Shown: positions 3,285-64,000, counted from the first letter of the stretch. The stretch: 64,000 nt of DNA from Amoebidium appalachense (GCA_963693365.1 CAVNZM010000010.1:8867794-8931793); one strand, 5' to 3'. Translations and numbers: made by a program. The notes: a model not told the origin generated them from the sequence alone.

Positions 3285-3318
<34 letters not shown>

Positions 3319-41389: not shown

Positions 41390-41728
41390 CATGGTCTGAC
41401 GTGCTCACTGAGTACATTCGTTCAAGGCGCACACAAATGCATCCACAACATGCAAACCCATCCGCCCTCCTTCTCTCTCCCTTTCCTTTTCTCTCTCACT
41501 CCCCATCTCCCCCCCCCATGCCCCCCCTCGAAAGTGAGTCTCTCTCCTTCTCACCCTCACCCCTTCCCCCCCCCCCCCCCCCCTTAACTCTTCTCTCTAG
41601 CCCATACAAGTGCATGCACGCGTCGCCAAAAACACACATACACGCAAGTGCACGCACATCCACATGTTTAAAAACATCCACCCACGCCGGCACAACATAC
41701 AGAGGTACATTCCCACACATACACACCC

Positions 41729-42494
41729 TGTTGGACATCGTGTTCATAGAAGCTAGTTCTAGTGCACGTTGTTCCTTCTGTAAGTCAGAAATGATTGCAT
41801 CTTGTGAGGCCAACCTCTGCTCCAGTAGTTGGACTAGTTGCTGCAACTGTAAGTTGTCAGACATAGTGTCGTGTATGATGGGTAACTTGTCTATGTGTTT
41901 TGTGCACTGAAAACGACAGTAGAAAAGTGTAAATCAAACGTTCTGCTTCCCATGTTTGTGACATGGGAGGCACTGCTTTATATAGTCGTTGGCCACCTCA
42001 TGGTGGCCTCGTGTGCACCCTGGTGGTGGGCCATGTACAGCATGGCCGAAAAGAGAGCACAATGAAAAACAAGTCGTTAAAGATATAAAAGTTAACTGTG
42101 CACGTTGAGTGGCTAGTTAACTTGCACTAAAGCACACAAATAAACGTGTTTAACACACCAATTGCAGTTAAACGTAAATCTTACTTCACACAACTAAAAA
42201 TATTCTGAGAATATCCGGGAATAAAGCACACTACCACTCTAAGAATAGAATCCTGTGGCAAATACAGACATGACATCATCTGAACCGGGAATATTAATTA
42301 ATGAGCACAATTAGCACGTTGCTAGTGAAGCTCGTCATTGGTACAGTTTTGGCTCAAACATATAACTACCATATATGAATATGACCGTAAACAAAAGCTC
42401 TATGCACTCGAGTGAGTGTTGAAACAATTATTCAATTGCTCAGAAACTTTCTCTAACAGACATTGCTAGCCGGGAGTACCAGTGTACTCCAACA
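41729..42494 (-). repeat. 3' LTR
   Basis: Direct repeat of 46847-47612. Preceded on the minus strand by the purine tract agtagggg (42495-42502). Confidence 0.97.
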
Positions 42495-42679
42495 CCCCTA
42501 CTCAATTGGATAATTGTGGTATGAATTAATGCAACTGAGCTCGAGTGCTTCAGGTGCACAAAATACAGACAATAAAGATTCCCCTACTCAATTTTAGTAT
42601 GGTACACGTAGTTGCACAGTCGGATGCAACTCTCTCCCCCCCCTGAAGTATGAGGGCGCAGTTGGTTGATGACGGGTGC

Positions 42680-46982: not shown

Positions 46983-47612
46983 AGTGTCGTGTATGATGGG
47001 TAACTTGTCTATGTGTTTTGTGCACTGAAAACGACAGTAGAAAAGTGTAAATCAAACGTTCTGCTTCCCATGTTTGTGACATGGGAGGCACTGCTTTATA
47101 TAGTCGTTGGCCACCTCATGGTGGCCTCGTGTGCACCCTGGTGGTGGGCCATGTACAGCATGGCCGAAAAGAGAGCACAATGAAAAACAAGTCGTTAAAG
47201 ATATAAAAGTTAACTGTGCACGTTGAGTGGCTAGTTAACTTGCACTAAAGCACACAAATAAACGTGTTTAACACACCAATTGCAGTTAAACGTAAATCTT
47301 ACTTCACACAACTAAAAATATTCTGAGAATATCCGGGAATAAAGCACACTACCACTCTAAGAATAGAATCCTGTGGCAAATATAGACATGACATCATCTG
47401 AACCGGGAATATTAATTAATGAGCACAATTAGCACGTTGCTAGTGAAGCTCGTCATTGGTACAGTTTTGGCTCAAACATATAACTACCATATATGAATAT
47501 GACCGTAAACAAAAGCTCTATGCACTCGAGTGAGTGTTGAAACAATTATTCAATTGCTCAGAAACTTTCTCTAACAGACATTGCTAGCCGGGAGTACCAG
47601 TGTACTCCAACA
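46847..47612 (-). repeat. 5' LTR
   Basis: Near-identical to 41729-42494. Only one mismatch noticed by eye (aaatacagac vs aaatatagac). Confidence 0.97.
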
Positions 47613-48340
47613 CACCCTCCCACGAACACTGTGGACACGATCATCATAATGTCGCCCCAATACTTTATCATCTTTCGCGCTGATCGTCACGCATCATTGT
47701 TGGGTGGGGTCAAGGGAGAGAGAGATGTTTGGCCATTTGGGGGGGGGGGGGGGGGGGGGATGTGTGGGGGGGGGGGGGGGGGGGGGACAGGGAGGGACCT
47801 TCTACCTCTGGGGTTAGCGCGGGGAGGGTGGCACGGGGAGGGAACCACCCACCCTCCGAGCTGATGGGTCGCTCCCCCCCCCCCCACCCCCCAACCTCTC
47901 CCCCCACCCCCCCACCCCCCCACCCCTCTCCCCCCTCCCTCCCTCCCACCCTCCCTTCCCACCCCCCCCCCCCCCCCCCCCCCCCCACCCACCCACCCAC
48001 CCCACCTCCCCATTCCTTCATCTCAAATGAATATAAGAGAAAGGGAGAGAATACGTCGTGATACAATAAACTTCGGTGCATGCATATAATTATGGGGTTT
48101 ACGCTGTTTACTCGAGGCAAAGAGAGACCAGTCTCAGGTATGGGGGGGTTTTGCTCGGAATATCCCCTCAGCGGTATATCATGATCACGTACATAGCTGT
48201 CGGGTGATGATTATATATCAGGGTTTACTTTCTCTACGAGACACCATAAAGACTAAGAAAAATTAATTAGTCGAGGTTCCCCCCTTTTTTTTTTTTTTTT
48301 TTTTTTTTTGGGCTCCCCTGGGACACTCGGTATCAGCTGG

Positions 48341-48412
<72 letters not shown>

Positions 48413-49064
48413 GGATTTTGTAATGATGTGTTTCTCAAGCCAATCAATACATCTAATAAACAGGTCGTATACGTAGTTTCGCGTGTTTAGTATAAAATCA
48501 AGGATGTTGTAATTTTTAGGTAGGCTATCTTTCTGGGTGTCTGTTGTGAATGTGACGTGTGTGTGTTGCGGTATTATGTGGTCTATTAAACTACATTTGG
48601 CGATACATGACCGTTTAAACTGGTGTGTATGTGTGTTGTTTGGGCATGCAAAGGATGCCACCTTATACTTATTAGATCTCCACTGTATAGCACGTGTACA
48701 GTAAAAGCGTGGTCACAGTGTGATCAATAATACCATCAGCTAGAGAAAGACCAATTCTACAGGAAGGTAATATGTATTTAGGTGTTACACATTTGCGAAT
48801 GCCATATTTGGCAATATGGTTAAGGCGGCCATTATATATAAAACGAGACATAATTACGGCTTAGTTTTTCAAGGTGTATGCTTTCATCGGGTCTGGTGTC
48901 GTGTGGTATCTTTTTCCATTTGTTAGATTGCGTAATTATCTTGTGATTGTGTACATGTCTGATAAGTAAGTGGCAGTCCAAAGTCACACACTTTTGCGGG
49001 GTTTTTTTGTATTTGTGCCCGGGGGAATAGGAGAGAGAGAGGGAAGGAAAGAGGGGAGAGGTGA

Positions 49065-49403
49065 GGAGGGGACAGGTCGGATAGAGAAGAGAGGGTGGGA
49101 GGGCAAGTACTTCTTATGTGCTTATTGAATTTCAGCGCGAGATGGGAAATAGAGAAGACTACCCTGAAAAACGTGGATGCCAGAGTCAGACGCTTTACAG
49201 CTAATCCAACCTCCAACAACAGGATATACGTTTAGAGTTTCAGGTACTCTGGTTTGCACCAGGTACCGGGGTTAGACTTTGAAACAGTACTGGCAGCAGA
49301 TGATCATGAGTTAAGTAATAAACCGGAAAAAATGAAAGTAACTATATATTTCCTTGGTGATTTCAATATAATAATGGATATCCAACAAATCCGGACTCGC
49401 TAG
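49065..49403 (+). mobile_element. Degenerate apurinic-endonuclease fragment of a non-LTR retrotransposon
   Basis: DRSDREERVGG-like segment, then KVTIYFLGDFNI (GDFN motif) at ~49335-49370. Interrupted by stops and poly-G. Confidence 0.45.
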
Positions 49404-49419
49404 ATTTTTTTTTTTTTTT

Positions 49420-49450
<31 letters not shown>

Positions 49451-50288
49451 GGGGGGGAGGGGGGGGGAGGGGGGGGGAGGGGGAGGGGGGAGGGGGGGGG
49501 GGGAGGGGGGGGAGGCTAGCGAAGAGCTAAGATCCACAAATTTACCTACACCAAAGTTGGAAGAAAGACAGAAGAGTACTTGAGAGGAATTTCTAGGAAT
49601 CTTTCCAGACACCCCTTTTTCTCTTCGCAATTGTATGTTCACGGTTCCATGGTGTGTGACTGTAGCCGGTGTGAGCACGTGCCACGTGGCACTATTGAAG
49701 CCCGTGGTTAGAAAGGCTGCCAAATATGGAATGATTAGGAGATCTAGATCTTGACGATGACGACGGCGTGTAGGGATTGGCGGGCTGTTGTTCCAAGATC
49801 ACCACAGCTTTTAGAGCCATATGTAGGTAATCAATACAGGGTAGGGATTACGAACAAAAATCGTCGTAATTACGATTAACGAGAGACCCCGATACGAATA
49901 AGGTTGGGGTGCTGTCGTAACAGCTTTCGTATGGTAATTAGCGTAAAATATGCTCGACTATCTAATCTTGCCTATTCTTTCGGTGTATTTCTGTTCAAGA
50001 ACCTATCTGCAGCTCTCTTGCTGTGCAATATCGAGCCCCGACCATTGCTCAGGGCCTGTAATCCTGTTATACTCAATTTGTGAAAATGCGCATTTTGGTA
50101 TTTTGACTGGAGGGGCGTTTTCGACGGGGCTGAACGCTCCACAAGAACCCTCATACTTGCATATCTTTCCGTCGAACAAATCCAGTCAAAAGAAAAAAAG
50201 AACCCCCCCATTACGATTAAGAAATAGTCCGTTACGATTGGCCCAAGGGCCATATGGTTGGGCTGGTCAACCCCAGCCAAGCTGCCCA

Positions 50289-50757
50289 ATTGGATTGGGC
50301 GATGGACTTGGTAAAGTTCGAATCGCGAAGGGCCGCCAGGCCCGGAGCCCGGAGCACGGCGCCCGGCCCGGCCCGCGCGGGGGTCTGGGGGGACGGCGTC
50401 TGGGGAGACGGGCGTGGGGCAGAGTGGCCCGGGTCTGGGGGGACGGGGTCTGGGGGGACGGGGGGTGAGCAGACCCGGGCCACTCTGCCCCACGCCCGTC
50501 TCCCCAGACGCCGTCCCCCCAGACCCCCGCGCGGGCCGGGCCGGGCGCCGTGCTCCGGGCTCCGGGCCCAGAGTTGCTCACCCCCCGTCCCCCCAGACCC
50601 CGTCCCCCCAGACCCGGGCCACTCTGCCCCACGCCCGTCTCCCCAGACGCCGTCCCCCCAGACCCCCGCGCGGGCCGGGCCGGGCGCCGTGCTCCGGGCT
50701 CCGGGCCTGGCGGCCCTTCGCGATTCGAACTTTACCAAGTCCATCGCCCAATCCAAT
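50289..50757. repeat. GC-rich palindrome: inverted arms 50289-50471 and 50575-50757 (183 bp each) with a 103-bp spacer that duplicates part of the right arm
   Basis: attggattgggcgatggacttgg...ggggtgagca is the reverse complement of tgctcacccc...ccatcgcccaatccaat. Spacer 50472-50568 equals 50611-50707. Confidence 0.95.
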
Positions 50758-51152
50758 ATTGGACTAGTCACGTGGCCTGGTAACTTTGAGATCACACCAC
50801 ACCAACCACCTCCGATCCGATCGCGATCAATCTATTTCCCACTTCCCACTTTTCCTACTTAAAATCGAAAAAAAGAAAAAAAAAAGGAGACAAAACAAAC
50901 GATACAGCATTACCCACTTTTAAGTGGGTAAGTGGCCAATGACAACAAACACTTATCGATTTAAACCTAAAACACAACCATATAGTACTAGGGAACGGGG
51001 AACGGGGACATGCCAGGCACACGCGGCACACGAGGCACAGGAGGCACACGCGGCATGCGAGGCGCGCGTGCCTGCCAGGGGCCTCCCCGCCCCGCCCAGC
51101 CACGCCCAGCCCCGCCGGTGATGTGAAAAATATTATGTGTGCATAGACATGA

Positions 51153-51995
51153 ATGGCGATCATGGATGATGAAATACACAACGCGCCACAATGGTGCAAA
51201 TTTCTGGTTGCTCTGGGCATATACAAGCCTTTACAACTAATAACATGGTACAACAGCAACATTCAGAAGGGCAGTGGGTTCAGCCTGTTCTGGTATGACG
51301 CAAACGATGAGCCGGTGATGAACACGTGGAGTGAAGCCAATGAGATGCACGCGGTGGGTACGGATACGATAAGAATGGGCGGAATCGATTGGTGTTTTTC
51401 CGAGGAGGACATGACCTGGGCAACACGTGTGGGCTGGGTACGCGATACCAAAGGCTACCTACGACTCTACCTACCGGGCTGGAATCAACACGTGGCTGAG
51501 TCACCGGCTGCACACCAGTTGGTGTGCTATATCCAGGGCATTATCACCGAGAGTACGGACTTCGAGATCGATCACCGAAACCAATCAGTAAAGGACAACC
51601 GACGGACCAATCTCTGCCCGCGACCAAAGGCCTATAACAAGTTCAAGAGACGAATCACAGGGCAGCCATGCCGGTTTGTGAACACCCGCGAAGGTTTCTT
51701 CGAGGTGCGGTTTCCAATGGTGCACAAGAAAGGGCAATACCACAAGATCGGCACATACACCGACTACACGGAGGCCGTGCACGTGGCGAGAGCCCATTGG
51801 CGTGTTTACTGCACACAGGCACGTGGCTGGACCGACCCAAGCATGGTGCAAGACTTCGAGGTGTTGATGGAGCCACACATTCCAGAGCCGGAAGTGAAGC
51901 CAATCATCGCGCCCGGATTCGTGGCTGACGTCACTGCCCGACCCACCGGCAAGCTGTGTGTCCCGACCAACAGCATCACGCGCCTGTTTGCCTAA
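51153..51995 (+). CDS. HNH endonuclease with C-terminal AP2-like DNA-binding domain
   Basis: KGYLRLYL..AHQLV..FEIDHRNQSVKDNRRTNL (HNH_3-like), then FEVRF...KGQYHKIGTYTDYTEAVHVA (AP2-like). AATAAA overlaps the stop. Confidence 0.85.
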   Translation: MAIMDDEIHNAPQWCKFLVALGIYKPLQLITWYNSNIQKGSGFSLFWYDANDEPVMNTWSEANEMHAVGTDTIRMGGIDWCFSEEDMTWATRVGWVRDTKGYLRLYLPGWNQHVAESPAAHQLVCYIQGIITESTDFEIDHRNQSVKDNRRTNLCPRPKAYNKFKRRITGQPCRFVNTREGFFEVRFPMVHKKGQYHKIGTYTDYTEAVHVARAHWRVYCTQARGWTDPSMVQDFEVLMEPHIPEPEVKPIIAPGFVADVTARPTGKLCVPTNSITRLFA

Positions 51996-52029
51996 TAAAG
52001 TAAAGACAAGAAACCAATCAGAAACAGGC

Positions 52030-52278
52030 CGGGGAACGGGGAACGGGGAATGCACAGGAGGCACAGGAGGCACAGGAGGCACAGGAGGCACAGGAGGCAC
52101 GGGAGGCACGCGGGGTGGGGTGAGAGAGAGAGAGAAATAAGCTAAGTCTACACGAGAGAGAGAGAGAGAAAAAAGCTAAGTCTACACGAGAGAGAGAGAG
52201 AGAAAAAAGCTAAGTCTACACGAGAGAGAGAGAGAGAGAGAGAAAAGAGAGAGAGAGAGAAAAAAGCTAAGTCTACAC

Positions 52279-52318
<40 letters not shown>

Positions 52319-52660
52319 AAAAAGCTAAGTCTACACGAGAGAGAGAGAGAGAGAGAGAAAAGAGAGAGAGAGAGAAAAAAGCTAAGTCTACACGAGCTAA
52401 GTCTTGACCCGGGCAGGGGGGGGGGCAGGTGAGGCAGGGGGGGGCAGGTGAGGCAGGGGGGGGGGACGTGAGGCAGGGGGGGGCAGATGAGGCAGGGGGG
52501 GGGGGCAGGGGGGGGCACGTGAGGCAGGTGAGGCAGGGGGGGGCACGTGAGGCAGGGGGGGCACGTGAGGCAGGGGGGGCACGTGAGGCAGGTGAGGCAC
52601 GTGAGGCACGCGAGGCACGCGAGGCAGGGGGGCCGGGGGCCGGGGGGGGGGGGGGGTTTA
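52030..52660. repeat. Composite subterminal tandem repeats
   Basis: (gcacaggag)n at 52050-52110, [aaaaagctaagtctacac(ga)n] x~7 at 52135-52400, and (gtgaggcagggggggcac)-like units at 52410-52630. Confidence 0.9.
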
Positions 52661-52817
52661 TTTAAAAACAGGGATCTGTATATACTTCACGGGGGTTTAT
52701 TTTAGCATACAATACGGGTATAACAATTCCCAACCCACATATTCTGATCGACATCAATGATCTAAATTCGAGCATATAAATTCCAAAAGGTGAGTGTCGA
52801 TTTTTTCTATATACAGG

Positions 52818-53825
52818 TCATTCATCCTCGGTATGATCGGATTGTACATTCATATTTGGACGGAAAAGGAGAGAGGGACGAGATGTGTTATGGTACACAA
52901 CCAGAGATACACCATTGTCGTCATCACCACTATTTTCACTTTCACTTTCGCTTTCACTTTCACTCTCGTCGCCTGACTCGCAATAGGCAAATGTACGCAC
53001 ACGTTCCAAACGCACATGTTCCTCCAAAGACTCCATCTCCACATACAAAGCAAGAGCATCACCACCACCACCACCCAAATCGTCACAACTACTCTTACGT
53101 CGTTTGACGGAGTCGCCAGAACCGCGTCGGCGAGGCAGACCACAACCAAAATGACACTCTTTCGGCTCGACGTTGTGATATCGCTTCAGACGCTGTTCGT
53201 TGTTGTACACGTCGCTTGTGAGTTTGGATTTCTGTGCCTGTAGCACTTTAATCTGACGAGAAAGGGCCCCAATCTCCTCCTTCTTCTGGCCATTCACGGC
53301 GGAGGTAAGGGCATACAAATACGAATACTCGGCCAACACACAACTGAAAACCTTCTTGTCTTCATCGGTCACAGGCCACGGGTCTTGGTCGTATAGAGCA
53401 CTGTCACGATATGTCATGAACGCGATGCATTTGCCAACAACGTCATCCCAATCAGCTTTGTAGGAGCGATGTACTTCGACGTCGGGCGAAAAAATAGAAT
53501 CGGCATCGATTTTTTTCAAACAAAACCGGAAGTCACGAACACCAATTGTTGCTATACCAGAGGTGTCGAGGGTGAGATGTGCACAAACGTCGAGCAACTT
53601 ATCCAACAAAAAATCATATTCGTCAATCGAATCGACGACAGTTTCGTTAGTCACCGCGAGGACCTGTGCGTGACGCCACAATCTGGCAAGGGAAGGCAGG
53701 GAAACCCGCATGTGGCTTTGCATGCTCGGGTCACGCTTGTGGGAGGGTCTTGTTTCCAGTGCATCAAAGAAATCAATAATAACCCGAAAAGTCCCGGAGA
53801 CACGAGCATAGCGAATAGAAGCCAT
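52818..53825 (-). CDS. Hypothetical protein with coiled coil and acidic tail
   Basis: ~335-aa intronless ORF from MASIRY. Basic RRRGS..KRRKS patch (NLS-like) and ESESESES tail. AATAAA downstream (52657, 52696). Confidence 0.75.
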   Translation of the reverse strand: MASIRYARVSGTFRVIIDFFDALETRPSHKRDPSMQSHMRVSLPSLARLWRHAQVLAVTNETVVDSIDEYDFLLDKLLDVCAHLTLDTSGIATIGVRDFRFCLKKIDADSIFSPDVEVHRSYKADWDDVVGKCIAFMTYRDSALYDQDPWPVTDEDKKVFSCVLAEYSYLYALTSAVNGQKKEEIGALSRQIKVLQAQKSKLTSDVYNNEQRLKRYHNVEPKECHFGCGLPRRRGSGDSVKRRKSSCDDLGGGGGDALALYVEMESLEEHVRLERVRTFAYCESGDESESESESESENSGDDDNGVSLVVYHNTSRPSLLFRPNMNVQSDHTEDE

Positions 53826-53916
53826 TGTGAACCCGTTAACACGAACGATTCCAAACGGGCTTAAAAACACAATCAAAAACCGAAATTTTGTGTCGCTACA
53901 TGTCACGGTTCGTAGA

Positions 53917-54237
53917 CGATGGAAAACAGAAAAAAAAATCTCTTCTAAAAAAAGGACGCTTAAAACACGGCTCGTTCACGATGGAAAACAGAAAAATAAG
54001 TCTCTTCTAAAAAAGGACGCTTACAACACGGCTCGTTCACGATGGAAAACAGAAAAAAATAAGTCTCTTCTAAAAAAGGACGCTTACAACACGGCTCGTT
54101 CACGATGGAAAACAGAAAAAAAAGTCTCTTCTAAAAAAGGACGCTTACAACACGGCTCGTTCACGATGGAAAACAGAAAAAAAGTCTCTTCTAAAAAAGG
54201 ACGCTTACAACACGGCTCGTTCATGATGGAAAACAGA
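53917..54237. repeat. ~61-bp tandem repeat, ~5.3 copies
   Basis: Unit cgatggaaaacagaaaaaaaagtctcttctaaaaaaggacgcttacaacacggctcgttca. Confidence 0.92.
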
Positions 54238-54553
54238 AGGCTTCTGCGACGCGAAGAGTCCTTATAAACATCTGCATTAGCGCAACCACCAAAACGAACC
54301 AATGCGCATCACGTAGGGTTCAACTCAGCAGAAACATAGCCAATTAAAACAATGCTTTAATTTCGCTTGGCCAATTAAAGGGCTCGCCTTTCACGTTTTT
54401 TGGAGTGATTATTTCGTCTGGCCAATCAAGTGGCCTCGTGTTTCGCTTTGCAAAAAAAAAAATAAAGTTCACCGAGTGAACAACCAACCAAACCACGCAA
54501 AAAGCACGCCACCACACATGCTTCCCATTATGGTGACTACCGCGGCGTTCGGG

Positions 54554-54746
54554 ACCAATCAGATCAGCGGTCAAACCACGCGAACCAATCAGATCAACGG
54601 TCAAACCGGATGGACCAATCAGATCAACGGTCAAAACACACAAACCAATTAGATCAGCGGTCAAACCGGGCGGACTAATCAGATCAGAGGCCAAACCGGG
54701 CGGACCAATTAGATCAGCGGTCAAACCGGGCGGACCAACCAGATCC
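54554..54746. promoter_or_regulatory. 30-bp tandem array of CCAAT-box units, 7 copies
   Basis: accaatcagatcagcggtcaaacc+6 nt at 54554, 54584, 54614, 54644, 54674, 54704, 54734. Lies between divergent ORFs. Confidence 0.7.
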
Positions 54747-54847
54747 GATTTAGATACGGATCGAAAAAAAAAGGCCCAGGCGGTGCTGTGAAGGGTCGTA
54801 TCGCGCGACAGACACAGGCTTCCTCTTTTTATTGGTACAAGTGCACA

Positions 54848-55117
54848 ATGTGGCCTTGGGTAGTCGCGTCCGCCATCTCATTCGTCCTGTTCTGGTTGAC
54901 GCTGATATCATGTGACGTTCATAGAATAAACAGATCACTGAAGCAAAAAACCGGGTCCCACCCAATACTGGACCCATTATGCGACAACTTCATGATTCGC
55001 TGGCTGTGGATACTGTTGCCACTAATGCTTGCATATACATACACCACATCCACACAATGCACCGAGACGGAAACCGCACAGAAAATACTTTCAGGTGCTA
55101 CACCCGTATCAACTTGA
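54848..55117 (+). CDS. Small two-TM hypothetical protein
   Basis: MWPWVVASAISFVLFWLTLISC... and IRWLWILLPLMLAY hydrophobic segments. Confidence 0.45.
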   Translation: MWPWVVASAISFVLFWLTLISCDVHRINRSLKQKTGSHPILDPLCDNFMIRWLWILLPLMLAYTYTTSTQCTETETAQKILSGATPVST

Positions 55118-55445
55118 AACGACCCACCCCTTTGAAAGGTGGATCCCACCAGGGCTCTCGCTTGGCAATCACCACGACTTCCGGTACACGAGACTGTGTT
55201 TTTGTCAAAACACCGACGAGTTCACCGACATTCCAACATATATCTGGAATCGACAGGCTGCTCGCCAACGCGTTCACAACAAAGCGGCTTTTTTGATCCA
55301 CTCCACATACTTGTGTAATCAAATCACTCGTCGCGGAAAGAACCACAGTCCCAGAGTGAGCACGCGCGCTGCGCAGCATGTTGTCTAACCGCCCGCGATC
55401 TCCCACGTACCAATAACACCCTGGGTTGTACACTTCCACGTCCAT
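55098..55445 (-). CDS. Hypothetical protein (~115 aa)
   Basis: ORF from MDVEVYNPGCYWY with globular composition, in a gene-dense context. Confidence 0.5.
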   Translation of the reverse strand: MDVEVYNPGCYWYVGDRGRLDNMLRSARAHSGTVVLSATSDLITQVCGVDQKSRFVVNALASSLSIPDICWNVGELVGVLTKTQSRVPEVVVIAKREPWWDPPFKGVGRFKLIRV

Positions 55446-55643
55446 TTCACAAGGAAAAAGATTAAATTGACACGACTGACCAACGATCACTGGGTTTTAT
55501 TGTTTATCAATATACAAATGACATTCCTCCAAAAATAGCGGATACAGTGCCACCGGTGACCAGTCACCTGCATTTATTAGGACGAAACCCACAAGACCCC
55601 AAGCGGGCCTGTCCGCGGAGGACAAATCCACGGCAAGCCGTCT

Positions 55644-56516
55644 TCAAAGTGCGTGTCCTACATGGCCTGAGTTGTTCCACGGTGTCGGTCTTCTACGCAG
55701 GCTGCGAGGCAGGCCGAAGAACTCGGTTGTGCGGTTGCGGGCGTGGACGGTGTCCAACACGGCGTCCCTTAGCGGCAGACCCGCGTTCTCGACCTGGACG
55801 TTGACCCGCTCAAAGAACGGGTCGAGCCACTCGGAGGCCCAGTCGTCAAGCGCGGTGGTGAAGTCTTGAGCGGCCACAGCGCCGGGGGCCATCGAAACGG
55901 GGGCACCGTGCTCGATCCCGACGCGGTAGGCACCCTCTTGCAGGGTGGACGGAGGCGCGGCAGGGGATGGGGTAGTGCATACGACGTTCTCAAACAGGAG
56001 GCTGGGCATGACCCAGTAGGGTTTCCTGGAGATGGCAGGCGCCACACCATCGACTTCATCCAAGTTGGGATCCCCAAAAACGTTCCAGAAAACCCATCCG
56101 TCTCTGGTCGGCTTGGTGGCGTATACGGGGGGCCGTCGTTCACATCTGTAACCATACCCCATGCCGGCCTCGCTGTCGCTGAGCGTGGTGTCGAATTCAT
56201 AGTAGTATTCGCTGAGGGTCGGGTCGGTAACGGGGTGTCCGGGCTTGTACAGTTTGATGTAGCCGCGCATGGAACGTTCGTCGCGCTCATAACGAGTCAT
56301 GCCATTTACACCAACACTCTGGACACTGATCTGTCCGTTTGACAGAATGGGAATAGCCACCCTGTGTGCGTGGTCCCATCTCGACTCAATTAGGCACGAC
56401 CAATCCCGGCCATCGCCCGTGGATTCTGTAACGCATTCAAATTTGCGGTCTAGGTACCTCGTGAGCTCATCCTCCGTGGCGATGCGGGTCAGTTCCATGC
56501 GCACCGGCATTTTCAT
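55644..56516 (-). CDS. Hypothetical protein (290 aa)
   Basis: Intronless ATG-initiated ORF. TATAAAAG at 56578-56585 (minus), CCAAT cluster at 56609-56712, AATAAA at ~55575. Confidence 0.8.
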   Translation of the reverse strand: MKMPVRMELTRIATEDELTRYLDRKFECVTESTGDGRDWSCLIESRWDHAHRVAIPILSNGQISVQSVGVNGMTRYERDERSMRGYIKLYKPGHPVTDPTLSEYYYEFDTTLSDSEAGMGYGYRCERRPPVYATKPTRDGWVFWNVFGDPNLDEVDGVAPAISRKPYWVMPSLLFENVVCTTPSPAAPPSTLQEGAYRVGIEHGAPVSMAPGAVAAQDFTTALDDWASEWLDPFFERVNVQVENAGLPLRDAVLDTVHARNRTTEFFGLPRSLRRRPTPWNNSGHVGHAL

Positions 56517-56747
56517 AACACAGAATGTTCATGTGAAATTGGAAATGCGAACTGGTGGCCTGTTCTTGTGTGGTAAGCTTTTATACCGGATGTCGCGCAA
56601 GCATCAAGCCAATCAGATCACACCCGTCAACCAATCAAGAACCAATTAAAGAGCAAACACAAGATCCACCAATCGGAAATCAGAAGTCACATCCAAAGAC
56701 CTTGCACCAATCAAAGCCACAACATCCCCCCTGATCTGTCGCGCTGC

Positions 56748-57038
56748 CTAGTTCTCTTTATTTTCCATGGGCGGCTCCGGCTCGTCATCGGGTTCTAACA
56801 TCCTTTGCATGACAATCGCGGTCATGGCCAGGTTCTTGGGCACCCAGTGCTTGAACCCGCACTTCCGCGCGAGCTCGTCGGGCAGGTCGATGTAGCCCTT
56901 GTCCGCGAGCTCCCTGGCGTAGCGCTGCTTCTCGCGCTCGGTGTGGCGTTGCGTTTCCTCTGTGGGGACAACCGTGGCCTGGATGACGGGGGCCTTGCCT
57001 GGCTCCTCCTTGAGCTTGTATTCCCAGCGATACGCCAT
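56748..57038 (-). CDS. Hypothetical protein (96 aa)
   Basis: ATG-initiated, GC3-rich codons, protein-like composition. Confidence 0.65.
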   Translation of the reverse strand: MAYRWEYKLKEEPGKAPVIQATVVPTEETQRHTEREKQRYARELADKGYIDLPDELARKCGFKHWVPKNLAMTAIVMQRMLEPDDEPEPPMENKEN

Positions 57039-57153
57039 ACGTGTGGCACCAATAAAAATACAAACAGACGTTTATTGAGTTTGTGTGTTGTGAAGGCGGG
57101 GGCCAGCCCCGCGTGTGTGTAGTTAAATGTACATGGTGTGTGTGCGTGTGTGG

Positions 57154-58104
57154 TCAAGCCTGCGGCGCGCGTGCAAACAGGCCGTGTGCGACCTCGTAGA
57201 ACTGGGCCGTTTCACCGACCCTCCACTTCTCGCCGGCGAGCTCGACGACGACGGGATCGGACGTGATGGGGGTGATGAGGCGCGGACGAGGCGCGCACTC
57301 CGTGTCCAAGGAGACGCTTGCAAAGCCCTCCATGACTAGGAAGGAGGGGTGTTCGGGAAGGCACATGCCGCGGACGCGCGGGTGGTAAGGACTTGCAACG
57401 ATCCAGACGATGCACAGGTGGCGCAGCCTGCACAGGGTGCGGATAGCGCGCATGAACGACGCGGTCCATACTGCGCGGACAGCGACCAGGGTCTCCATGT
57501 CGTAGGCGCGCCACGGGGTGAAGTGGTTCGTCATGGTCAGGCGCTGGACTGCGCGGATGAAGAGCACGGGGGGCGCGGGGTCGGTGTAGGTGTCCTCGTC
57601 GTCGCTGGGCAGGTCGGTGTCGACGTGTGTGATGCGCACGGTCTTGCAGTTTGAGATGCGACCGCGGACGAAGCACGCGGACAACTGGACGGCAGAGGCG
57701 TTCGCGATGACGCCCTCGATGAACAGGTCACCGTAGAAGGTGACATCGACGGTCTCGAGCGCCGTGCAGGCGTCGAAGCCCACGAGGTGCAGTGCGGCTT
57801 CGGCCTCAAAGAGCTCTGACCTGTTGAGTTGGATCAGACGGTCGCCCTTCTCCGACTGGTCGTCCCATGCGCTCGTTATGCACAGGTGGCGGAGGCCGGG
57901 GGGCAGCTTGACGGTGATGGACTGGTTCAGATCGCGTGAGAAGAGGGCTACGATGTCCAGGGTGATCACCTCCATGGCGCTCCTGGTCGAGAAGTCGATC
58001 TTGACGGTGGGGTGGAACAGGTGCGCCCTGATGTTGGCTTCGAGGTCTGGGTTGTCGACCTCCTCCTTGAGCAGAAAGTACGGTGCCTCGGTGATAAGCG
58101 CCAT
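57154..58104 (-). CDS. Hypothetical protein with degenerate leucine-rich-repeat-like segments
   Basis: From MALITEAPY. LPPGLRHLCI, CTALETVDV, VQRLTM and LCRLRHLCI resemble LxxLxL repeats. CCAAT boxes upstream (58190-58260) and AATAAA at ~57072. Confidence 0.7.
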   Translation of the reverse strand: MALITEAPYFLLKEEVDNPDLEANIRAHLFHPTVKIDFSTRSAMEVITLDIVALFSRDLNQSITVKLPPGLRHLCITSAWDDQSEKGDRLIQLNRSELFEAEAALHLVGFDACTALETVDVTFYGDLFIEGVIANASAVQLSACFVRGRISNCKTVRITHVDTDLPSDDEDTYTDPAPPVLFIRAVQRLTMTNHFTPWRAYDMETLVAVRAVWTASFMRAIRTLCRLRHLCIVWIVASPYHPRVRGMCLPEHPSFLVMEGFASVSLDTECAPRPRLITPITSDPVVVELAGEKWRVGETAQFYEVAHGLFARAPQA

Positions 58105-58277
58105 TCTTGTGTCGGTTCCCGTGTTTGCCCGGTGCGATTCTTGGAGCCATTTTAATGGCCGTTGCCGCTTGGGATACGATGACGTCATCGCCCAATGGCG
58201 ATTTCCGCCCAAGAGCGCCCATCCAATCAAGGACGTCCACGAGCACCCACCCAATCGGGAGAGGTGTCGTTACGTCA

Positions 58278-59330
58278 TCATACCCGAGCCCGAAGATCGT
58301 GCGGACTTCCAGAGCACGGTGCACGTACGTACGTTCTCCAGAGCGTCCAATACAACCCAAACCAACGCGTGAGGAACCATGTGCTGTTGCCCGGATACGA
58401 AGCTAAGTTTGAGTCCGCTGCGCCGACCGTCTTGAACCATCCAACATTATCCTTGGTCGAGTAGTAGAAAGACTTGCATTTCGGTTCTGCGACGCACGCG
58501 GTCTTCACTTCGTCCACCGACCCATTCATCGACCGAATATCGCTTCCGGCGTGCCCGACATCCAATCGCTGCACCTAATTGGGTCCGGACACCGGCAGAC
58601 CCGACTGCCAGAGCACGGTTCCGTCGGCGTCGCGCACGTAGGCGACACCGTCGTTCTCGATTGTCAGGATCGCCGTGCCCAGCTTCCCCTTGCGGTAGGT
58701 GTTCGACGCCCATATGACCGCACCCTTTGCGTCGTACACCACCAGATTGTTGTCCTCCTGCATGACGAGAGAGTAGGGCGCGGTACCGTTGTTGGTCTTG
58801 TTGTGTGCCCAGAGGACCTTGTTGCTGCCGCGTTCGGCGACTATGGTGTTCCCATCTCTCTCCTGCACCAGTTTGTACCGACCGTCGGGCGACACGATCG
58901 CCTCATTGGATGTGCTGGACCCCACGATCTTTTTGCCGCTTCCCAGCATGCTCCTGGCTGGTGGCTCCTCCTTCTTCACGACAGCGGTGGGGGCGTTGGG
59001 GCAGGTGGGACAGTCGGGGCACTTCTCCTTGGGGGGGCAGGTCGGGCAGGTCGGGCACGTGGGGCACTTTGTGGGGGCCAGGGTGGGGCACGTCGGACAG
59101 GTGGGGCAATCCGGGCACTTCTTTTCGGGGGGGCAGACCGGACAGCTGTTGCATATGCCGCAGGGGCGCCTGCACTTGAGGGTGGTGATGTAGCGGTAAA
59201 AGCGGGGCCGGTTGACGTCGTACACGACGAGGAGGACGAACAGGGCACACAGGCACCACACCCACGTAGACACGCTGGGGCGGCGGGGGAAAACCTGTGA
59301 CGGGGGCAAGTCCATTTGGTAGACCCACAT
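58278..59330 (-). pseudogene. Membrane-anchored B-type (bulb, mannose-binding) lectin with CPxC stalk and a PAN/apple-like domain separated by an in-frame TAG
   Basis: TM WVWCLCALFVLLVVY, CPDCPTCPTC repeats, SPDGRYKLVQERDGN..LVMQEDNNLVVYD...IWASNT (QxDxNxVxY motif). TAG at 58575-58577, then in frame GSDIRSMNGSVDEVKTAC..EPKCKSFYY....GWFK. Confidence 0.8.
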
Positions 59331-59361
59331 GAAAATCGCACACAGTCCTGTTTGGCAAGCT

Positions 59362-59769
59362 TTATTTGAGCGGCTCGCGGCGCAGCGCGGATGCCACGCG
59401 GGCAGTCCAGGCGCACCTGCCACGCAAGTTCGCGGCGAAGGCCTGATATGGAAGCGTCTGTGAGAACCACTCGCCCTTGTTGACGTCCCAGTAGCGGAGC
59501 CCGTTGTTCTTCGATATGTGGACCCGGGGACAGCTGCGGCAGTCCGGAACGGTCTCGCTGTCAGCGTCGAAGCCCTCGGCGAGGTACTTGTCGTACAGCG
59601 CCTGTCCGCACGCGATTGCGTCGCAGCCCGCGTAGGGTCCAGGGTCGGGCAGTGGACGACCTTCCATGGCCGCACGCACCGACCGCCACACCGACGCCGC
59701 CTGGTGCCGAGCCGCGATTGCAGCAAACGTCAGCGCGCATAGGACACACACAACCAGTACCAGATACAT
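59362..59769 (-). CDS. Small N-terminally anchored Cys-containing protein
   Basis: MYLVLVVCVLCALTFAAI hydrophobic N-terminus, CxxxxC and CxxC, AATAAA overlapping the stop. Confidence 0.7.
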   Translation of the reverse strand: MYLVLVVCVLCALTFAAIAARHQAASVWRSVRAAMEGRPLPDPGPYAGCDAIACGQALYDKYLAEGFDADSETVPDCRSCPRVHISKNNGLRYWDVNKGEWFSQTLPYQAFAANLRGRCAWTARVASALRREPLK

Positions 59770-59815
59770 CACTGTGAGACGCCAGCATTACGTCCAACCC
59801 CAAGACCGCGAGCGG

Positions 59816-61174
59816 CTATTTGATCCCAACTAGGACGGTGAAGCGACCGCCGACCCTGTACCCCATCTCATCCACGACGGCCACGCGCAGCCCCTCGACG
59901 TGCTCGAGCGACGTGGCTAGCTGCGGCGACGCCTGTAGGTCTTCGCTGATGCCGCAGGCGGCGCCGTGGACACCCGCGGACACGATGCGGCCCTGCAGGC
60001 TTGTCTCGCCGTGCATGACCGTGACCAGCAGCGCGCCCCGAGGCGCCAGGGGAGGCGTGGACCCGACGATGCACTGGATGTTGTCTGCGGCGCAGGGAAG
60101 CTGTTGGTCGCCTTCGGCCACGGGGGCGTGGTCGCGGCCGTCGAAGTACCTTGCAAGCGGGGGCAACCCGCTGGTGAGGCTGTGACTGACGTGGCCGCCG
60201 ACCTCGAAACCCAGGACGCGCGCAAGGCCGCGTGGGACATCGAGGGTGAACGTAGGGACAGTTGCATATGGGGCCCAGTGCTTGACGACGTCGGGTGTGA
60301 GTGTCTTGTGGTGGTGGATGCTGATGACCAGGCGATCGGGAATCGCCAGCTGCGACGGGGACATAAACGAGTAGAGCGTGTGGTGGAACGGCCACTTGAA
60401 GCGGTTGTGGGGGTCACGCTCGTTTGCCAGCTCTCGCCATGCCCAAGGGTTCTCCCGATAGTGTATCTGCGCCAGCTGCAGCACCTCGTGGGCCAGGTGA
60501 TCGGCGGGGCCCGAAGTGCGCGGCGCCCACCTGTCCTTTGCGAGGAAGTCTTCTTGGCGGGTCCATGCCTCGCCATTGCGCTCGGCGGCGGCCTTGATGA
60601 CGGTCGTGTGTGTGACCTTTGCGTAGTACGGGACTGCATCCGGGAACACGTCGAGGAGGTCTGCGATGTCATCGATGTTATACGAGGGCTTGTAGCAATC
60701 GGCGATGGCCTGATCTAGACGGGCCTCCAATTCAGCGCACAGGGCGCCGATTGTATAGTGCCCGACCGGCAGGTAGATGTCTGCAGTCGAACGTGTCCAC
60801 GAGCCCGGGTGGCGGCCATCTGGCGAGTCGAGGAACGACAGCCCCAGCACCAATCTGTTGGAGCCCTCTGACACGTCGAACACGGAATGCACCCGTGCGC
60901 CCTCGACGCGAACACCGTGGACCGAGCGGGGAGCGGAGAACTCTATCTTCAGCGGGCCACCATGTGTGTCGCCGCTGACAAAGTGGTATCGCCAGGGAGC
61001 CTGGGACGCTTGGGTCGGGGCGGGTGAGCTCCGGGCGGAGGCATCGCCTACCACTGATGTGCGGGACGGGGTTGGAAGTGCGGGTCCGTGGGGAAAGGCC
61101 CGTCGTGCCATGGCAGCGGAGAAGTCGATGTGTGAAGCCATGTCGTCGAGAATACGGGAGCGCGCCTTCGACAT
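59816..61174 (-). CDS. Putative penton / minor capsid protein (single jelly roll with insertion), NCLDV/polinton-type
   Basis: IEFSAPRSVHGVRVEGARVHSVFDVSEGSNRL..IYLPVGHYTIGALCAELEARL..LARVLGF..VEGLRVAVVDEMGYRV..FTVLVGI follows the motif order I recall for Bamfordvirae pentons (YNI..NN, P.G.Y...L, LGF, terminal I.L.D..G strands). Not confirmed by profile search. Confidence 0.6.
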   Translation of the reverse strand: MSKARSRILDDMASHIDFSAAMARRAFPHGPALPTPSRTSVVGDASARSSPAPTQASQAPWRYHFVSGDTHGGPLKIEFSAPRSVHGVRVEGARVHSVFDVSEGSNRLVLGLSFLDSPDGRHPGSWTRSTADIYLPVGHYTIGALCAELEARLDQAIADCYKPSYNIDDIADLLDVFPDAVPYYAKVTHTTVIKAAAERNGEAWTRQEDFLAKDRWAPRTSGPADHLAHEVLQLAQIHYRENPWAWRELANERDPHNRFKWPFHHTLYSFMSPSQLAIPDRLVISIHHHKTLTPDVVKHWAPYATVPTFTLDVPRGLARVLGFEVGGHVSHSLTSGLPPLARYFDGRDHAPVAEGDQQLPCAADNIQCIVGSTPPLAPRGALLVTVMHGETSLQGRIVSAGVHGAACGISEDLQASPQLATSLEHVEGLRVAVVDEMGYRVGGRFTVLVGIK

Positions 61175-61199
61175 CCTACAGGTGGGTGAGCATAAAAGC

Positions 61200-61557
61200 T
61201 CAGTCCATGACTGTGCAGTTGCACTGCCAACGGGCCTTGGGTCCCGGGGCAGAAGGTGCGGGCGTCATGCTGGGTGGCCACACCAAAGTCTCGGGGGTAG
61301 TGGTGGGGGTGGCTGGGGACGGGGTGACGTCATCATCGGAGGAAATCTGTGACCCGGAGCCACTGGCGGGGAAGTCGAGTGGGACCTCATCGTCTGTCGG
61401 CGCGGGGATGCCGGGGGGGCCAGACCGCAGGTGCGGTTTCAGCGACGGCCTCGGTGGCTGCGAGACTGGACGCGGGGCCGGTGCTTTGGTATATGCACTG
61501 TGGGGCAGCGAACGACCCGACGGCAAGGGCGAAGACGGCGTAGAGGTTGTTGAGCAT
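61200..61557 (-). pseudogene. Small secreted Pro/Thr/Ser-rich protein with a 1-nt frameshift
   Basis: MLNNLYAVFALAVGSFAAP...AVWPP shifts frame in a C7 run (plus G7 61413-61419) into GIPAPTDDEV...LVWPPSMTPAP..WQCNC*. Confidence 0.55.
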
Positions 61558-61577
61558 TACTTGTAGCATATAAAATT

Positions 61578-62174
61578 CTAGGCGCCGCGGAGGTCCAAGA
61601 CGGCAAGAAACAACGTTATGGCAGGGAACGGGAACATGTCAAGACAGAGCCTGAAGCGCCAGAACCGCGCGATGCATATCGCAACATTGACACCCCGAAA
61701 TCCATATTGGACGCCGAGGTCGTCCGTGTAGACAAACCACGAGGGCATCGGCATGATTGGTAAACCGCCCAAGCCAAGCGAAGCGGCCACTCCCAGTTCG
61801 ATACGGGCAGTGGGTAGCGAAGCGGGTGACCAATTTGTGTGGTTAGGTGTACGCGTGTTGATTCTTACGTTAGCGAGGCTTGGCCTCGGTAGTGTGTGTT
61901 TCGCGGCGGTCGTGGCTCCGGTCTGTGAATGTATGAAGACAAATTCTGAGGCATCGGCCCTGTCGTCGGTGAACGTGACGACGTTGTGATCCGGCAAAGC
62001 CTTCCAATACATACGCAGATCCCCAACGCGGGTGCACACGTATGGGTCATCCCTCTGCCATGGCAGTGCCATGCCAGTCTGTTGGGTGTCTGCCAGATCG
62101 GGCGGCCAATCAGTTGGTTCGCTCAGCAGAGCCAGTTGCTTGCTAACGTATCGACCTGAATGAAGGATGTGCAT
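61578..62174 (-). CDS. Hypothetical protein (198 aa)
   Basis: ATG-initiated ORF packed co-directionally with its neighbours. Confidence 0.5.
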   Translation of the reverse strand: MHILHSGRYVSKQLALLSEPTDWPPDLADTQQTGMALPWQRDDPYVCTRVGDLRMYWKALPDHNVVTFTDDRADASEFVFIHSQTGATTAAKHTLPRPSLANVRINTRTPNHTNWSPASLPTARIELGVAASLGLGGLPIMPMPSWFVYTDDLGVQYGFRGVNVAICIARFWRFRLCLDMFPFPAITLFLAVLDLRGA

Positions 62175-62284
62175 ATCGTGTGGGGGCTAACAAGACCTGG
62201 GCATTTTATTGTGCCACAAGCAGGGGGTGTGCGTACACGCATGTGGATCGCTCTGGGTATACTCTGTTCACGGACATGCAGCCA

Positions 62285-62793
62285 TGTTGTGGCCGCCGCA
62301 GATGCCTTGCCCAGCAAGCTTTATTGAATTGTTGCCACGCGAGATGCGGGCGATGGCAAAGAACCCCCAATCATACGGTCAAGACATACCCATGTACCTA
62401 CTCCAATCGTCCAACCTTGAATATGCCAAGTCCGAGCCATGTCGGACGCGCAAAACAACCGGCGAAACCTACACAGTCAAACCCGGAAAGAGATCTAACA
62501 TCAAAACCCAAAACAATGTTCCCCAAGGGGAAGACTACTACTTCCGCTTTCTCAGAATGGTTAATAGACGCATGCATACGAGTGACATCCAACTAGGCAC
62601 TCCAAGTGCAATAAGGGGTGCTGGTGATACGGCCAATTCGGAGCGATGGGGTGCAATCCACGTCCCCCGCAATGTGAGCGTCTGTAAAGGGCGGCGGGAA
62701 TGCTATATGCAGATGAAGTGGGTGACCTCCAAACTCGTCGATTGCGTTCACCAGACGTATGTGGGCTGTGCCTTGATCTCTGTCAAGCGGTGA
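62285..62793 (+). CDS. Possible hypothetical protein
   Basis: Longest open frame filling the gap, convergent with the next gene. No motif recognised and start uncertain. Confidence 0.3.
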
Positions 62794-63331
62794 TGGTAGT
62801 GGGATGTGGGGTGGTCGGAGTGTTAGCGGTGTGTTTTTTTGTCTCGTGTGTGGGTTCGTCGTGAGGGAGTCTCGCCAATTCCGCGATTGTGCGCACCTTC
62901 GGGGTATTCAAAGTACAACACTTGTCGGCGATTTGGAAGATGGCGTGATTGGCGTCTTGCATGTATGGAACCGTGATAAGACCCACCACGGAGACAACCG
63001 AGACAAGTCGGGCGAGTTGTGACACAAGCGAGGCGTCCTCCTTCCGCAATAAAAATCTCATCAGGACGTGTCGCATTGGACGCAGTAGACTGAAATCTAC
63101 CTCTGATATCAGGGCTTGGACACACTCCTTGCAGAAAGCGGCATGGCTATTCAGCATATCGACATCCGCCCCGTCGATGGCCGACGACACGACAACCAAG
63201 TCCGGGTTGTCGTCGAACGACCCATAATAAGACTTTACTTCGTCTGTGATACACTTGATGTAGCTTGTTCTGTGCTCCGCAGGAAGCGTGGCGGGCAGAC
63301 CATAGAAACTCCGGAAACCGGAGTTCGACAT
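62783..63331 (-). CDS. Hypothetical protein (~182 aa)
   Basis: From MSNSGFRSFY. TATAAAG at 63408-63414 (minus) and several CCAAT/ATTGG boxes upstream. Confidence 0.7.
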   Translation of the reverse strand: MSNSGFRSFYGLPATLPAEHRTSYIKCITDEVKSYYGSFDDNPDLVVVSSAIDGADVDMLNSHAAFCKECVQALISEVDFSLLRPMRHVLMRFLLRKEDASLVSQLARLVSVVSVVGLITVPYMQDANHAIFQIADKCCTLNTPKVRTIAELARLPHDEPTHETKKHTANTPTTPHPTTITA

Positions 63332-63619
63332 CGTGATTCGCAAAACTAGAAACGTATTCTGGTAGTCGAATGGATGAATAATGAAGCATTGGGTATGCGT
63401 CGTTCCTCTTTATACCATTTGATTCAGATGCGTATAAGCAAATGCAAATGATTGGTGTATGATGGCGTTATGTGTGCTGATGTAACCAATCGCTGCTCTC
63501 CATCCGCATGAATTCCTAGTGTGTGGTATGAGCTCACTTTATCAGGAACCAATGAAAAAAAACGACGAATTGGATTGTAGTGTTTACATCTTCAATTCGC
63601 ATCAAATTTGATAATGATT

Positions 63620-63900
63620 TGCGCCCAATCAACAACGGCGACTCAAAATTCGGGATGATTCAAAACGGCGACTCAAAATTAGGCGTGTCTCATCTTACGC
63701 CCAATCAACGGCGACTCACCTTACGCCCAATCATTCAAAACGGCGACTCACCTTACGCCCAATCATTCAAAACGGCGACTCACCTTACGCCCAATCATTC
63801 AAAACGGCGACTCAATTTTAGGCGTGTCTCATCTTACGCCCAATCAACGGCGACTCACCTTACGCCCAATCATTCAAAACGGCGACTCAAAATTCGGGAT
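63620..63900. repeat. Tandem/patchwork repeat with a 32-bp CCAAT-containing core
   Basis: cggcgactcaccttacgcccaatcattcaaaa repeated, with shorter variants interleaved. Confidence 0.9.
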
Positions 63901-64000
63901 CTTCTACGTCGTGGATGTTTGCACAAGGAACACCTACCTCACCGGGCCCCACATTGAAACCACACCTTTTCTGGGGTTCGTTTGGTTTTAAGATCGGTTG

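Follow-up and report, generated by a model that had tools for sequence, protein, structure and literature searches.

A long GC-rich palindrome at the probable left end of an endogenous penton-encoding virus in Amoebidium appalachense

The locus

A stretch of 64,000 nucleotides from Amoebidium appalachense (GCA_963693365.1 CAVNZM010000010.1:8867794-8931793), hereafter referred to as the window, was analysed on one strand with positions counted from its first letter. The present work concerns its last 13.7 kb (50289-64000), which open with a 469-bp palindrome bordering repetitive host DNA, carry 14 plausible intronless open reading frames (ORFs) with tandem arrays between them, and include a predicted penton gene. 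This segment very probably belongs to an endogenous penton-encoding double-stranded DNA (dsDNA) virus, and the chances appear about even that a mid-sized, capsid-encoding dsDNA virus of the Polinton-like or 'adintovirus' kind, present in multiple copies, was recently integrated here, the segment being the left end of one such copy with its hairpin tip opened. An initial annotation, made from the sequence alone, had described it as the terminus of a large integrated linear dsDNA virus; an integrated virus with its end at 50289 is in keeping with the penton and the palindrome, but no giant-virus core gene that would justify the word 'large' was found in the window.

The host side of the window (1-49515) has a CpG observed/expected ratio of 0.50, as against 1.03-1.07 in the element (50289-64000), which is not CpG-depleted, and runs of ten or more G or C residues number 105 in the repeat-rich eukaryotic part up to about 49.5 kb and 4 from 50289 onwards. 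The intronless ORFs start beyond the palindrome and the compositional switch coincides with its position, in agreement with the change of character that had been noted after the last host poly-G tracts. The ORFs had also been called tightly packed, which was not borne out, as they occupy 67-71% of the post-palindrome DNA.

Part of 49001-59000 is contained in 20 of the 24 listed runs, of which five were aligned: X1, X4 and X7 on both stretches compared, X17 on the first and X18 on the second. All 30 bins were covered on both stretches in X1 and X4, and 21 and then 30 of the 30 in X7; the lack of cover in X17 from 50303 and the patchy cover in X18 (21/30 bins) were not counted as evidence, the nature of these two runs being a guess.

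Terminal palindrome and the 12-bp dyad

The large palindrome with which the segment had been said to open was recovered at 50289-50757. It is 469 bp long with 76.5% GC and consists, on the plus strand, of an outer arm (50289-50471) and an inner arm (50575-50757) of 183 bp each, exactly complementary with no mismatches, which enclose a 103-nt loop (50472-50574) made up mostly of duplicated stem sequence. The duplicate is exact over 99 bp (50470-50568 = 50609-50707), its loop copy being able to pair with 50339-50437 as an alternative inner hairpin, and the layout of the whole can be written as a-b-c-b'-x-c'-b'-a'. The folding energy is -326.8 kcal/mol, whereas shuffles average -138.7 (z -35.6) and none of 100 equalled it; with simple repeats filtered, perfect inverted repeats of at least 25 bp occur nowhere else in the 64-kb window. 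Rfam returned only five microRNA matches for the palindrome, all below threshold, which were dismissed, and the 23-nt terminal motif has no relative in IMG/VR.

A 12-bp palindrome, TCCAAT|ATTGGA (50752-50763), one of six perfect 12-mer palindromes in 50289-64000, lies at the inner foot of the stem and is a candidate nick or cut site. The inner foot falls exactly at its centre, and the left end of the element at 50289 begins with its right half, ATTGGA. One contig (X7 record 26) aligns with the window from 50759 only and carries 641 bp of unlike DNA ahead of this point, the hairpin being missing. The end in the window and that of X7 record 26 thus both begin at the same dyad axis, and two ends at one axis would fit a hairpin telomere opened by a nick at the dyad. 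No target-site duplication flanking the palindrome was found.

Variants of the GC-rich arm are present in contigs at a depth like that of the element body (an indel at 50379 stands at 98.6/119.3 in X4), and X7 record 25 holds a diverged version of the arm with 7 substitutions and 4 gaps over 131 bp. The arm variants in X1, X4 and X7 therefore make the GC-rich arm a feature of the family, from which a palindromic form in the other copies does not follow. The adjoining sub-terminal region (50758-51000) is probably a terminal inverted repeat common to divergent copies, as judged from variant contigs of X1, X4 and X7; summed contig depth peaks at 50738-50911, and a deeper, variant-rich sub-terminal region is compatible with such a repeat, the left end alone lying in the window. 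The palindrome in the window is likely to be the hairpin tip of the element in opened form. There is good reason to regard the end of the element at 50289 as genuine, and a role of the palindrome as a functional hairpin telomere is marginally favoured.

The insertion site

The DNA between 49516 and 50288 is repeat DNA of the host and not of the virus, with the repetitive stretch at the insertion site spanning 49846-50288. X17 record 11 (1313 bp) matches 49846-50142 and 50198-50278 and then diverges into different sequence. As this contig departs from the window at 50278 and the palindrome runs from 50289, the palindrome adjoins host DNA and the joint is placed at 50279-50289, inside the host repeat. 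The host side at the joint reads CCAA, and microhomology of up to four bases blurs its exact position.

The same repetitive stretch holds a 48-bp A-tailed host insert (50152-50199) of extremely high copy number, with a summed depth of 127,338 in X1 (50129-50215). The insert is polymorphic, being skipped by X17 record 11 and by some X1 and X4 contigs, and has no match in Rfam.

Predicted penton gene

The ORF of 452 aa at 59816-61174 (minus strand) is predicted from fold matches to encode a penton or minor capsid protein with a single jelly roll and a large insertion, which lends support to the penton-like gene proposed in the initial annotation. In the ESM Atlas it lies beside penton clusters at 0.96, with a recognition score of 1861, under the 2300 mark; 29 of the 30 Atlas feature matches fall into three sets with leading clusters at 0.96, the commonest taxa being Parabasalia or Preplasmiviricota and PF01686 and PF21507 V18-19 being included. 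An AlphaFold model was built from four sequences (pLDDT, the predicted local distance difference test, 44.8), and pentons rank first in every structure library compared (Foldseek with PDB and BFVD; VIA). Mavirus and Sputnik pentons fill the first six ranks in PDB (E 3e-3 to 1e-2). The seven BFVD matches at E<=0.001 are giant-virus, Polinton-like virus (PLV), adomavirus, virophage and adintovirus proteins, with PLV TvV-S1 at rank 4 and template modelling (TM) scores all about 0.2, and the top five of VIA are capsid chains of EhV-201, PR772, PBCV-1 (two) and mavirus (Z 6.6-7.7). The fold matches cover mavirus, Sputnik, adenovirus and adintovirus pentons; they come from a low-confidence model and are not class-specific. 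As a prediction from models, the identification of the ORF as a penton is well supported by the agreement across libraries, but the fold does not discriminate between giant and Polinton-like viruses.

Three real homologues of the penton were found at 41-42% identity, two from Logan and KAI9549665.1 (P0124), a 225-aa piece on a contig of 183,011 bp in the Daphnia sinensis assembly. Of the three matches from a search of 1.84 billion proteins, two (P0125 and P0126) were discarded, being short alignments driven by repeats. No relative of the penton was present in IMG/VR or in the JGI metagenomes, and its profile matched no PDB sequence. KAI9549665.1 is annotated as a Daphnia sinensis hypothetical protein and is shorter than its 476-aa cluster mate P0127. 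Its contig is likely to be viral or symbiont DNA within the Daphnia sinensis assembly; Amoebidium lives on freshwater arthropods according to the main text of Sarre et al. (PMC11244446), which would explain a homologue in such an assembly. Nothing relevant to this contig was found in the literature searched.

Other genes and repeat arrays

A total of 93 stop-to-stop frames of at least 80 aa in 49516-64000 were searched against Pfam (E<=0.01), with B_lectin as the only match. Families of the nucleocytoplasmic large DNA viruses (NCLDVs), namely the major capsid protein (MCP, PF04451), A32, D5 primase, VLTF3 and PolB, were found in none of the 93 frames of the visible 13.7 kb, and a motif scan of the window frames showed no Walker A, PolB, methyltransferase or tyrosine-recombinase motif. 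Of the hallmark genes that the initial annotation had proposed to look for further to the right, MCP, A32 ATPase, PolB, D5 primase and integrase were not found in the 13.7 kb. None of 10 window translations is present by exact sequence in the protein collection searched; the host UBE2J2 protein does occur there, read from its own start (P0002). The repeat arrays claimed earlier were confirmed in four regions, near 52.0-52.66, 53.9-54.24, 54.55-54.75 and 63.6-63.9 kb.

The gene nearest to the palindrome (51153-51995, plus strand) encodes a putative HNH-type endonuclease of 280 aa, which the initial annotation had named an HNH-AP2 nuclease. The HNH part is retained on weak profile matches (Pfam HNH_3, E 0.0097-0.022, below cut-off; PHROG HNH, E 1.7e-5, residues 92-217), but the AP2-like tail is unconfirmed, with no Pfam match and only PHROG HNH profiles reaching over the AP2 half. 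Its single-sequence model (pLDDT 37.9) had no structural match at E<=0.001, and homologues were found neither among 74 candidates nor in GenBank phages or PDB sequences. The gene is flanked by direct repeats of about 80 bp (50991-51068 and 52032-52112, 83% identical), and its contig has a depth of 34.8 in X4 against 100-132 for the element body. The gene is probably an optional cassette, and because it appears in a minority of copies, HNH was rated low as a terminal nickase.

A repeat search placed tandem arrays of a 9-bp GGAGGCACA-type unit, GA-rich units and G-rich units at 52025-52660, and arrays of 61-63 bp and 30 bp (CCAATCAGATC) in CCAAT-rich intergenic DNA at 53900-54745. An orphan ORF of 335 aa with an acidic tail and no significant family (52818-53825, minus strand) lies between them. 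Three further orphans follow on the minus strand: one of 290 aa (55644-56516) with six CCAAT motifs upstream, TATAAA at -69 and AATAAA downstream, one of 96 aa (56748-57038) with a third-position GC content of 0.85, and one of 316 aa (57154-58104) with a weak lead to leucine-rich repeats (LRRs) only, its top cluster being unnamed (0.91) and an LRR_15 cluster standing at 0.87. Next, at 58278-59330 (minus strand), are a membrane-anchored ORF with Cys/Pro repeats and a B-lectin domain (58575-59330), a stop, and an in-frame, weakly PAN-like segment (PAN_4, E 0.014). The lectin gene of the initial annotation thus stands only in part, as B_lectin scores 31.1 bits, just under the cut-off of 32.4, while an NCBIfam lectin-like profile matches at E 3e-14; the in-frame stop may mean either that this copy is interrupted, that there are two genes, or that decay or an assembly error has occurred. 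A minus-strand ORF of 135 aa (59362-59769), likely a membrane or secreted protein with an N-terminal hydrophobic segment and Cys motifs, has no family, and an AATAAA overlaps its stop.

Beyond the penton gene, a small Pro/Ser/Thr-rich ORF (61192-61539, minus strand) is frameshifted in the window, or affected by an assembly error, through a 1-bp indel at 61413 relative to the contigs of X1, X4 and X7. Three orphan ORFs of 198 aa (minus strand), 169 aa (plus strand) and 182 aa (minus strand), for which no family was found, occupy 61578-63331. The 290-aa, 316-aa and 169-aa ORFs have no relatives in IMG/VR. The region of the convergent 169-aa and 182-aa ORFs (62349-63361) corresponds in X18 to a 1013-bp contig whose depth of 767 greatly exceeds that of the remaining element in the run. 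The last feature is a 32-bp CCAAT-containing array (63620-63910), and the element, like the contigs, continues past the end of the window.

Expression signals

Motifs were counted in 2268 bp of intergenic DNA with the arrays removed and compared with 300 shuffles. CCAAT occurs 22 times (6.8 expected; 0/300 shuffles), AATAAA 8 times (2.3 expected; 0/300) and TATAAA 5 times (1.3 expected; 5/300). Of the 14 ORFs, 5 have a sense AATAAA at -20 to +120 of the stop, where chance would give 1.0 (P=0.002), and 1 has an antisense one. The CCAAT, TATA and AATAAA signals reported earlier are thus enriched between the genes; however, TATAAA precedes only 2 of the 14 ORFs within 250 bp, and the host flank shows no excess of CCAAT (78 against 96 expected). 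The genes of the element may be transcribed in the nucleus by host RNA polymerase II, from CCAAT-rich promoters to AATAAA ends, as far as motifs can indicate. The test for CGC/GCG depletion, the Amoebidium methylation signature, gave 0.44 versus 0.45.

Copies and variants

Body contigs in X1, X4 and X7 match the window at about 99% identity and contain many variant sites, and the samples carrying the element date from 2011, 2020 and 2024. The window copy has private differences, namely the in-frame stop and the frameshift, and there are at least two different left flanks, those of the window and of X7 record 26. In X4, the depth of the body contigs (100-132) against that of the flank contig (22.9) points to about five copies, a minority of which would carry HNH, although contig depth is not copy number. 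These data suggest that the element is a multi-copy family.

Other features of the host flank

A young Copia-type long terminal repeat (LTR) retrotransposon lies at 41725-47616, with 774-bp LTRs that are 99.7% identical and long minus-strand gag-pol frames (900 and 644 aa), and a partial copy of its LTR (512 bp, 98%) is located at 32056-32566. A host ORF at 1943-3975 (plus strand) is mucin-like and Thr-rich, with a signal peptide and repeated Cys domains. Host minisatellites were observed at 25108-25608 (44 bp, 11.7 copies) and 30521-30728 (30 bp, 6.9 copies, 100% matches). A UBE2J2 gene (18283-18936, minus strand) is intronless in an intron-rich genome and may be a retrocopy or paralogue. Its best named non-self match is from Amoebidium parasiticum (60% identity), and in a tree of 26 rows, out of 120 proteins listed, it forms a long branch grouped with Amoebidium and Creolimax, the pair with Amoebidium having support of 85/37. 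Judged from this one long-branch gene, the host is likely an ichthyosporean and probably Amoebidium, its closest named relative.

Interpretation and alternative explanations

The two ends could be accounted for if the free genome were linear, each end being folded into a 183-bp stem able to prime itself. With one strand nicked midway through the TCCAAT|ATTGGA dyad that marks the stem foot, the hairpin could unfold and be copied, terminal resolution being known from rolling-hairpin replicons, and the new end (ATTGGA...) would then be joined to host repeat DNA. Were both strands cut at this centre, the hairpin would be lost and the element would end at 50758, as in the X7 contig. The 99-bp duplicate of the loop may stem from a template switch during copying of the tip. 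A more far-reaching reading is doubtful: long GC-rich hairpins would close the linear genome of a capsid-encoding virus of animal relatives and be opened or removed at one 12-bp dyad, used for terminal resolution as well as for integration, and protein priming would not be needed. If this were true, the window would hold the first intact telomere either of the Amoebidium 'adintoviruses', which would then replicate unlike Polintons, or of their medusavirus-related giant counterparts, whose integration would then proceed through the genome ends and would not be accidental.

A Polinton-like or adintovirus class is narrowly favoured for the element, and a giant-virus class is the less probable assignment. 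Several observations weigh against an adintovirus-like element with an opened hairpin. MCP, A32 ATPase, polymerase, integrase, VLTF3 and Dam were found in none of the 93 frames of the 13.7 kb, and these core genes would therefore all need to sit in the unseen remainder. The PolB of the Amoebidium adintoviruses is closest to adintoviruses in the published main text (PMC11244446), and the available text of a Halocafeteria preprint ties palindromes mainly to non-pPolB elements (10.64898/2026.07.28.741278). The penton model is poor by its pLDDT, its TM score and its VIA Z (below 8), the hairpin-free end is known from a single contig, and the step from contig depth to copies carries the reservation given above; no contig among the matches listed bridges the host-virus joint or either of the two unique joints within the loop. 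Further points would suit the genuine end of a giant virus related to medusavirus and clandestinovirus, as in the Amoebidium giant endogenous viral elements (GEVEs), with a hairpin telomere, variable terminal genes and a penton, the core genes lying far to the right. BFVD ranks 1-3 are Chrysochromulina, Bodo and Cafeteria giant viruses, and EhV-201 and PBCV-1 hold VIA ranks 1, 3 and 4. The sole named penton homologue, KAI9549665.1, sits on a 183-kb contig, and 13.7 kb without a core gene at about 70% coding would suit a variable terminal region; such insertions have been published for Amoebidium (PMC11244446, main text), and medusavirus uses the host RNA polymerase, as far as the text of PMC8557863 describes it. 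Such an origin is nevertheless on the unlikely side, as near-identical variants at about 4-6 times the flank depth, and an end conserved in divergent copies, resemble repeated integration of a whole element, the published GEVEs are divergent and incomplete (PMC11244446, main text), the Atlas and the Foldseek search of PDB lean to Preplasmiviricota pentons, and no JmjC or other GEVE-enriched Pfam domain occurs among the 93 window frames.

It is improbable that the virus ends at 50758 and that the palindrome is a by-product of fold-back repair, of a small inverted-repeat insertion or of long-read assembly. The hairpin-free X7 record 26, ending at about 50758, the uncrossed joints of the loop and a loop that is nearly all duplicated stem, as is typical of template switching, would agree with a by-product, and the Halocafeteria preprint gives accidental annealing as an alternative for its own palindromes in the text available (10.64898/2026.07.28.741278). 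However, the inner arm (50575-50757, the outer 183 bp) is not copied from elsewhere in the window, the arms have no mismatches and no flanking target-site duplication, and the arm variants at body-like depth, with the diverged version in X7 record 25, mark a feature of the family. Far less credible still is a chimeric assembly in which a free or episomal virus genome was joined to host DNA through a repeat: the joint does lie within a host repeat, unbridged among the contigs listed, and free genomes could raise the depth, but the sequence recurs in three samples taken years apart, the copy has differences of its own, and more than one left flank is found.

End replication and chromosome entry of protist Polinton-like and giant viruses are largely untested, and the locus offers a candidate processing site that is exact to the base, with two apparent outcomes at one site, the hairpin being kept in one and lost in the other. 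Amoebidium, the likely host genus, can be cultured, has genomes assembled from long reads and dozens of insertions, and its viral transcription can be induced by drugs (PMC11244446, main text). The copy ends across one assembly could be used to test the hairpin-priming model proposed for Halocafeteria viruses.

Comparison with known systems

The hairpin telomeres of poxviruses and asfarviruses are AT-rich with an incompletely paired terminal loop. The present end may be likened to theirs in folding back and being followed by tandem repeats, but it has 76.5% GC and a perfect 183-bp stem in place of an AT-rich mismatched loop; as an opened duplex, the palindrome would rather resemble a parvovirus end after terminal resolution. 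No HUH/Rep or resolvase was seen in the window. Flip-flop hairpins of vaccinia are mentioned in PMC11296320, and no description of a terminus such as the present one occurs in the accessible text of that paper or of PMC11161782, PMC12455990, 10.64898/2026.06.19.733378 and 10.64898/2026.05.21.726589. The 'hairpin' mentions in a bioRxiv preprint (10.1101/2022.05.25.493380) refer to protein beta-hairpins and were set aside. No account of a hairpin end in Amoebidium viruses was found in the literature covered, which included few subscription papers and excluded figures.

The main text of Sarre et al. 2024 (PMC11244446) describes 44 adintoviruses of about 30 kb in the reference genome of Amoebidium appalachense, some with long terminal repeats, as well as medusavirus-related giant-virus insertions in the genus, none of them complete; the strings 'hairpin', 'palindrom' and 'terminal inverted' do not occur in it. 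With related insertions already published for this genus, the proposal of an undescribed nucleus-dependent lineage in the initial annotation finds no support. Medusavirus has no RNA polymerase and begins its replication in the nucleus, according to the text of PMC8557863, so that host-type promoters need no new lineage. The element is like the Amoebidium adintoviruses in its likely host genus and in being an intron-poor compact block with a predicted minor capsid gene, apparently many copies, probable terminal repeats and polymorphism between isolates (PMC11244446, main text), and unlike them in that its 13.7 kb in the window show no PolB, MCP, VLTF3 or Dam. A member of the Polintoviricetes would be expected to have a double-jelly-roll MCP, a packaging ATPase, a protein-primed PolB, an integrase, terminal inverted repeats and a target-site duplication, with a length of about 30 kb. 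With the Amoebidium GEVEs (Mamonoviridae: medusavirus, clandestinovirus) it shares the type of host, genes that lack introns, a presumed reliance on the host RNA polymerase and an expected penton, as the texts of PMC11244446 and PMC8557863 describe them; it differs in having no NCLDV core gene in the window, whereas the main text describes the GEVEs as divergent and incomplete and mentions no terminus (PMC11244446). A GEVE of this group would be expected to form a silenced block hypermethylated at non-CGC/GCG sites.

The poxvirus and asfarvirus analogy drawn earlier is not the closest one, as terminal palindromes, with a hairpin-priming model, are described for endogenous virophages and PLVs of subtype 4 in Halocafeteria seosinensis in the available text of a preprint (bioRxiv 10.64898/2026.07.28.741278). 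Like these elements, the present one is an integrated virus with a capsid gene that ends in a palindrome, and it seems to have HNH in some copies only. In the Halocafeteria type the palindrome stands at both ends of all complete copies, beside a target-site duplication, and the replication genes are not of the pPolB kind. The palindrome reported there measures 52 nt (subtype 5), whereas the one described here has 469 nt; its stem is 183 bp long, a 99-bp duplication is nested within it, and the 12-bp dyad forms a distinct element where the stem has its foot. By analogy, the locus may work like the palindrome-ended Halocafeteria elements, its family assignment awaiting core genes. Viruses of this kind in this type of host, and shorter terminal palindromes in other protist viruses, were already known; what is added here is the length of the GC-rich stem together with a candidate processing site at the dyad.

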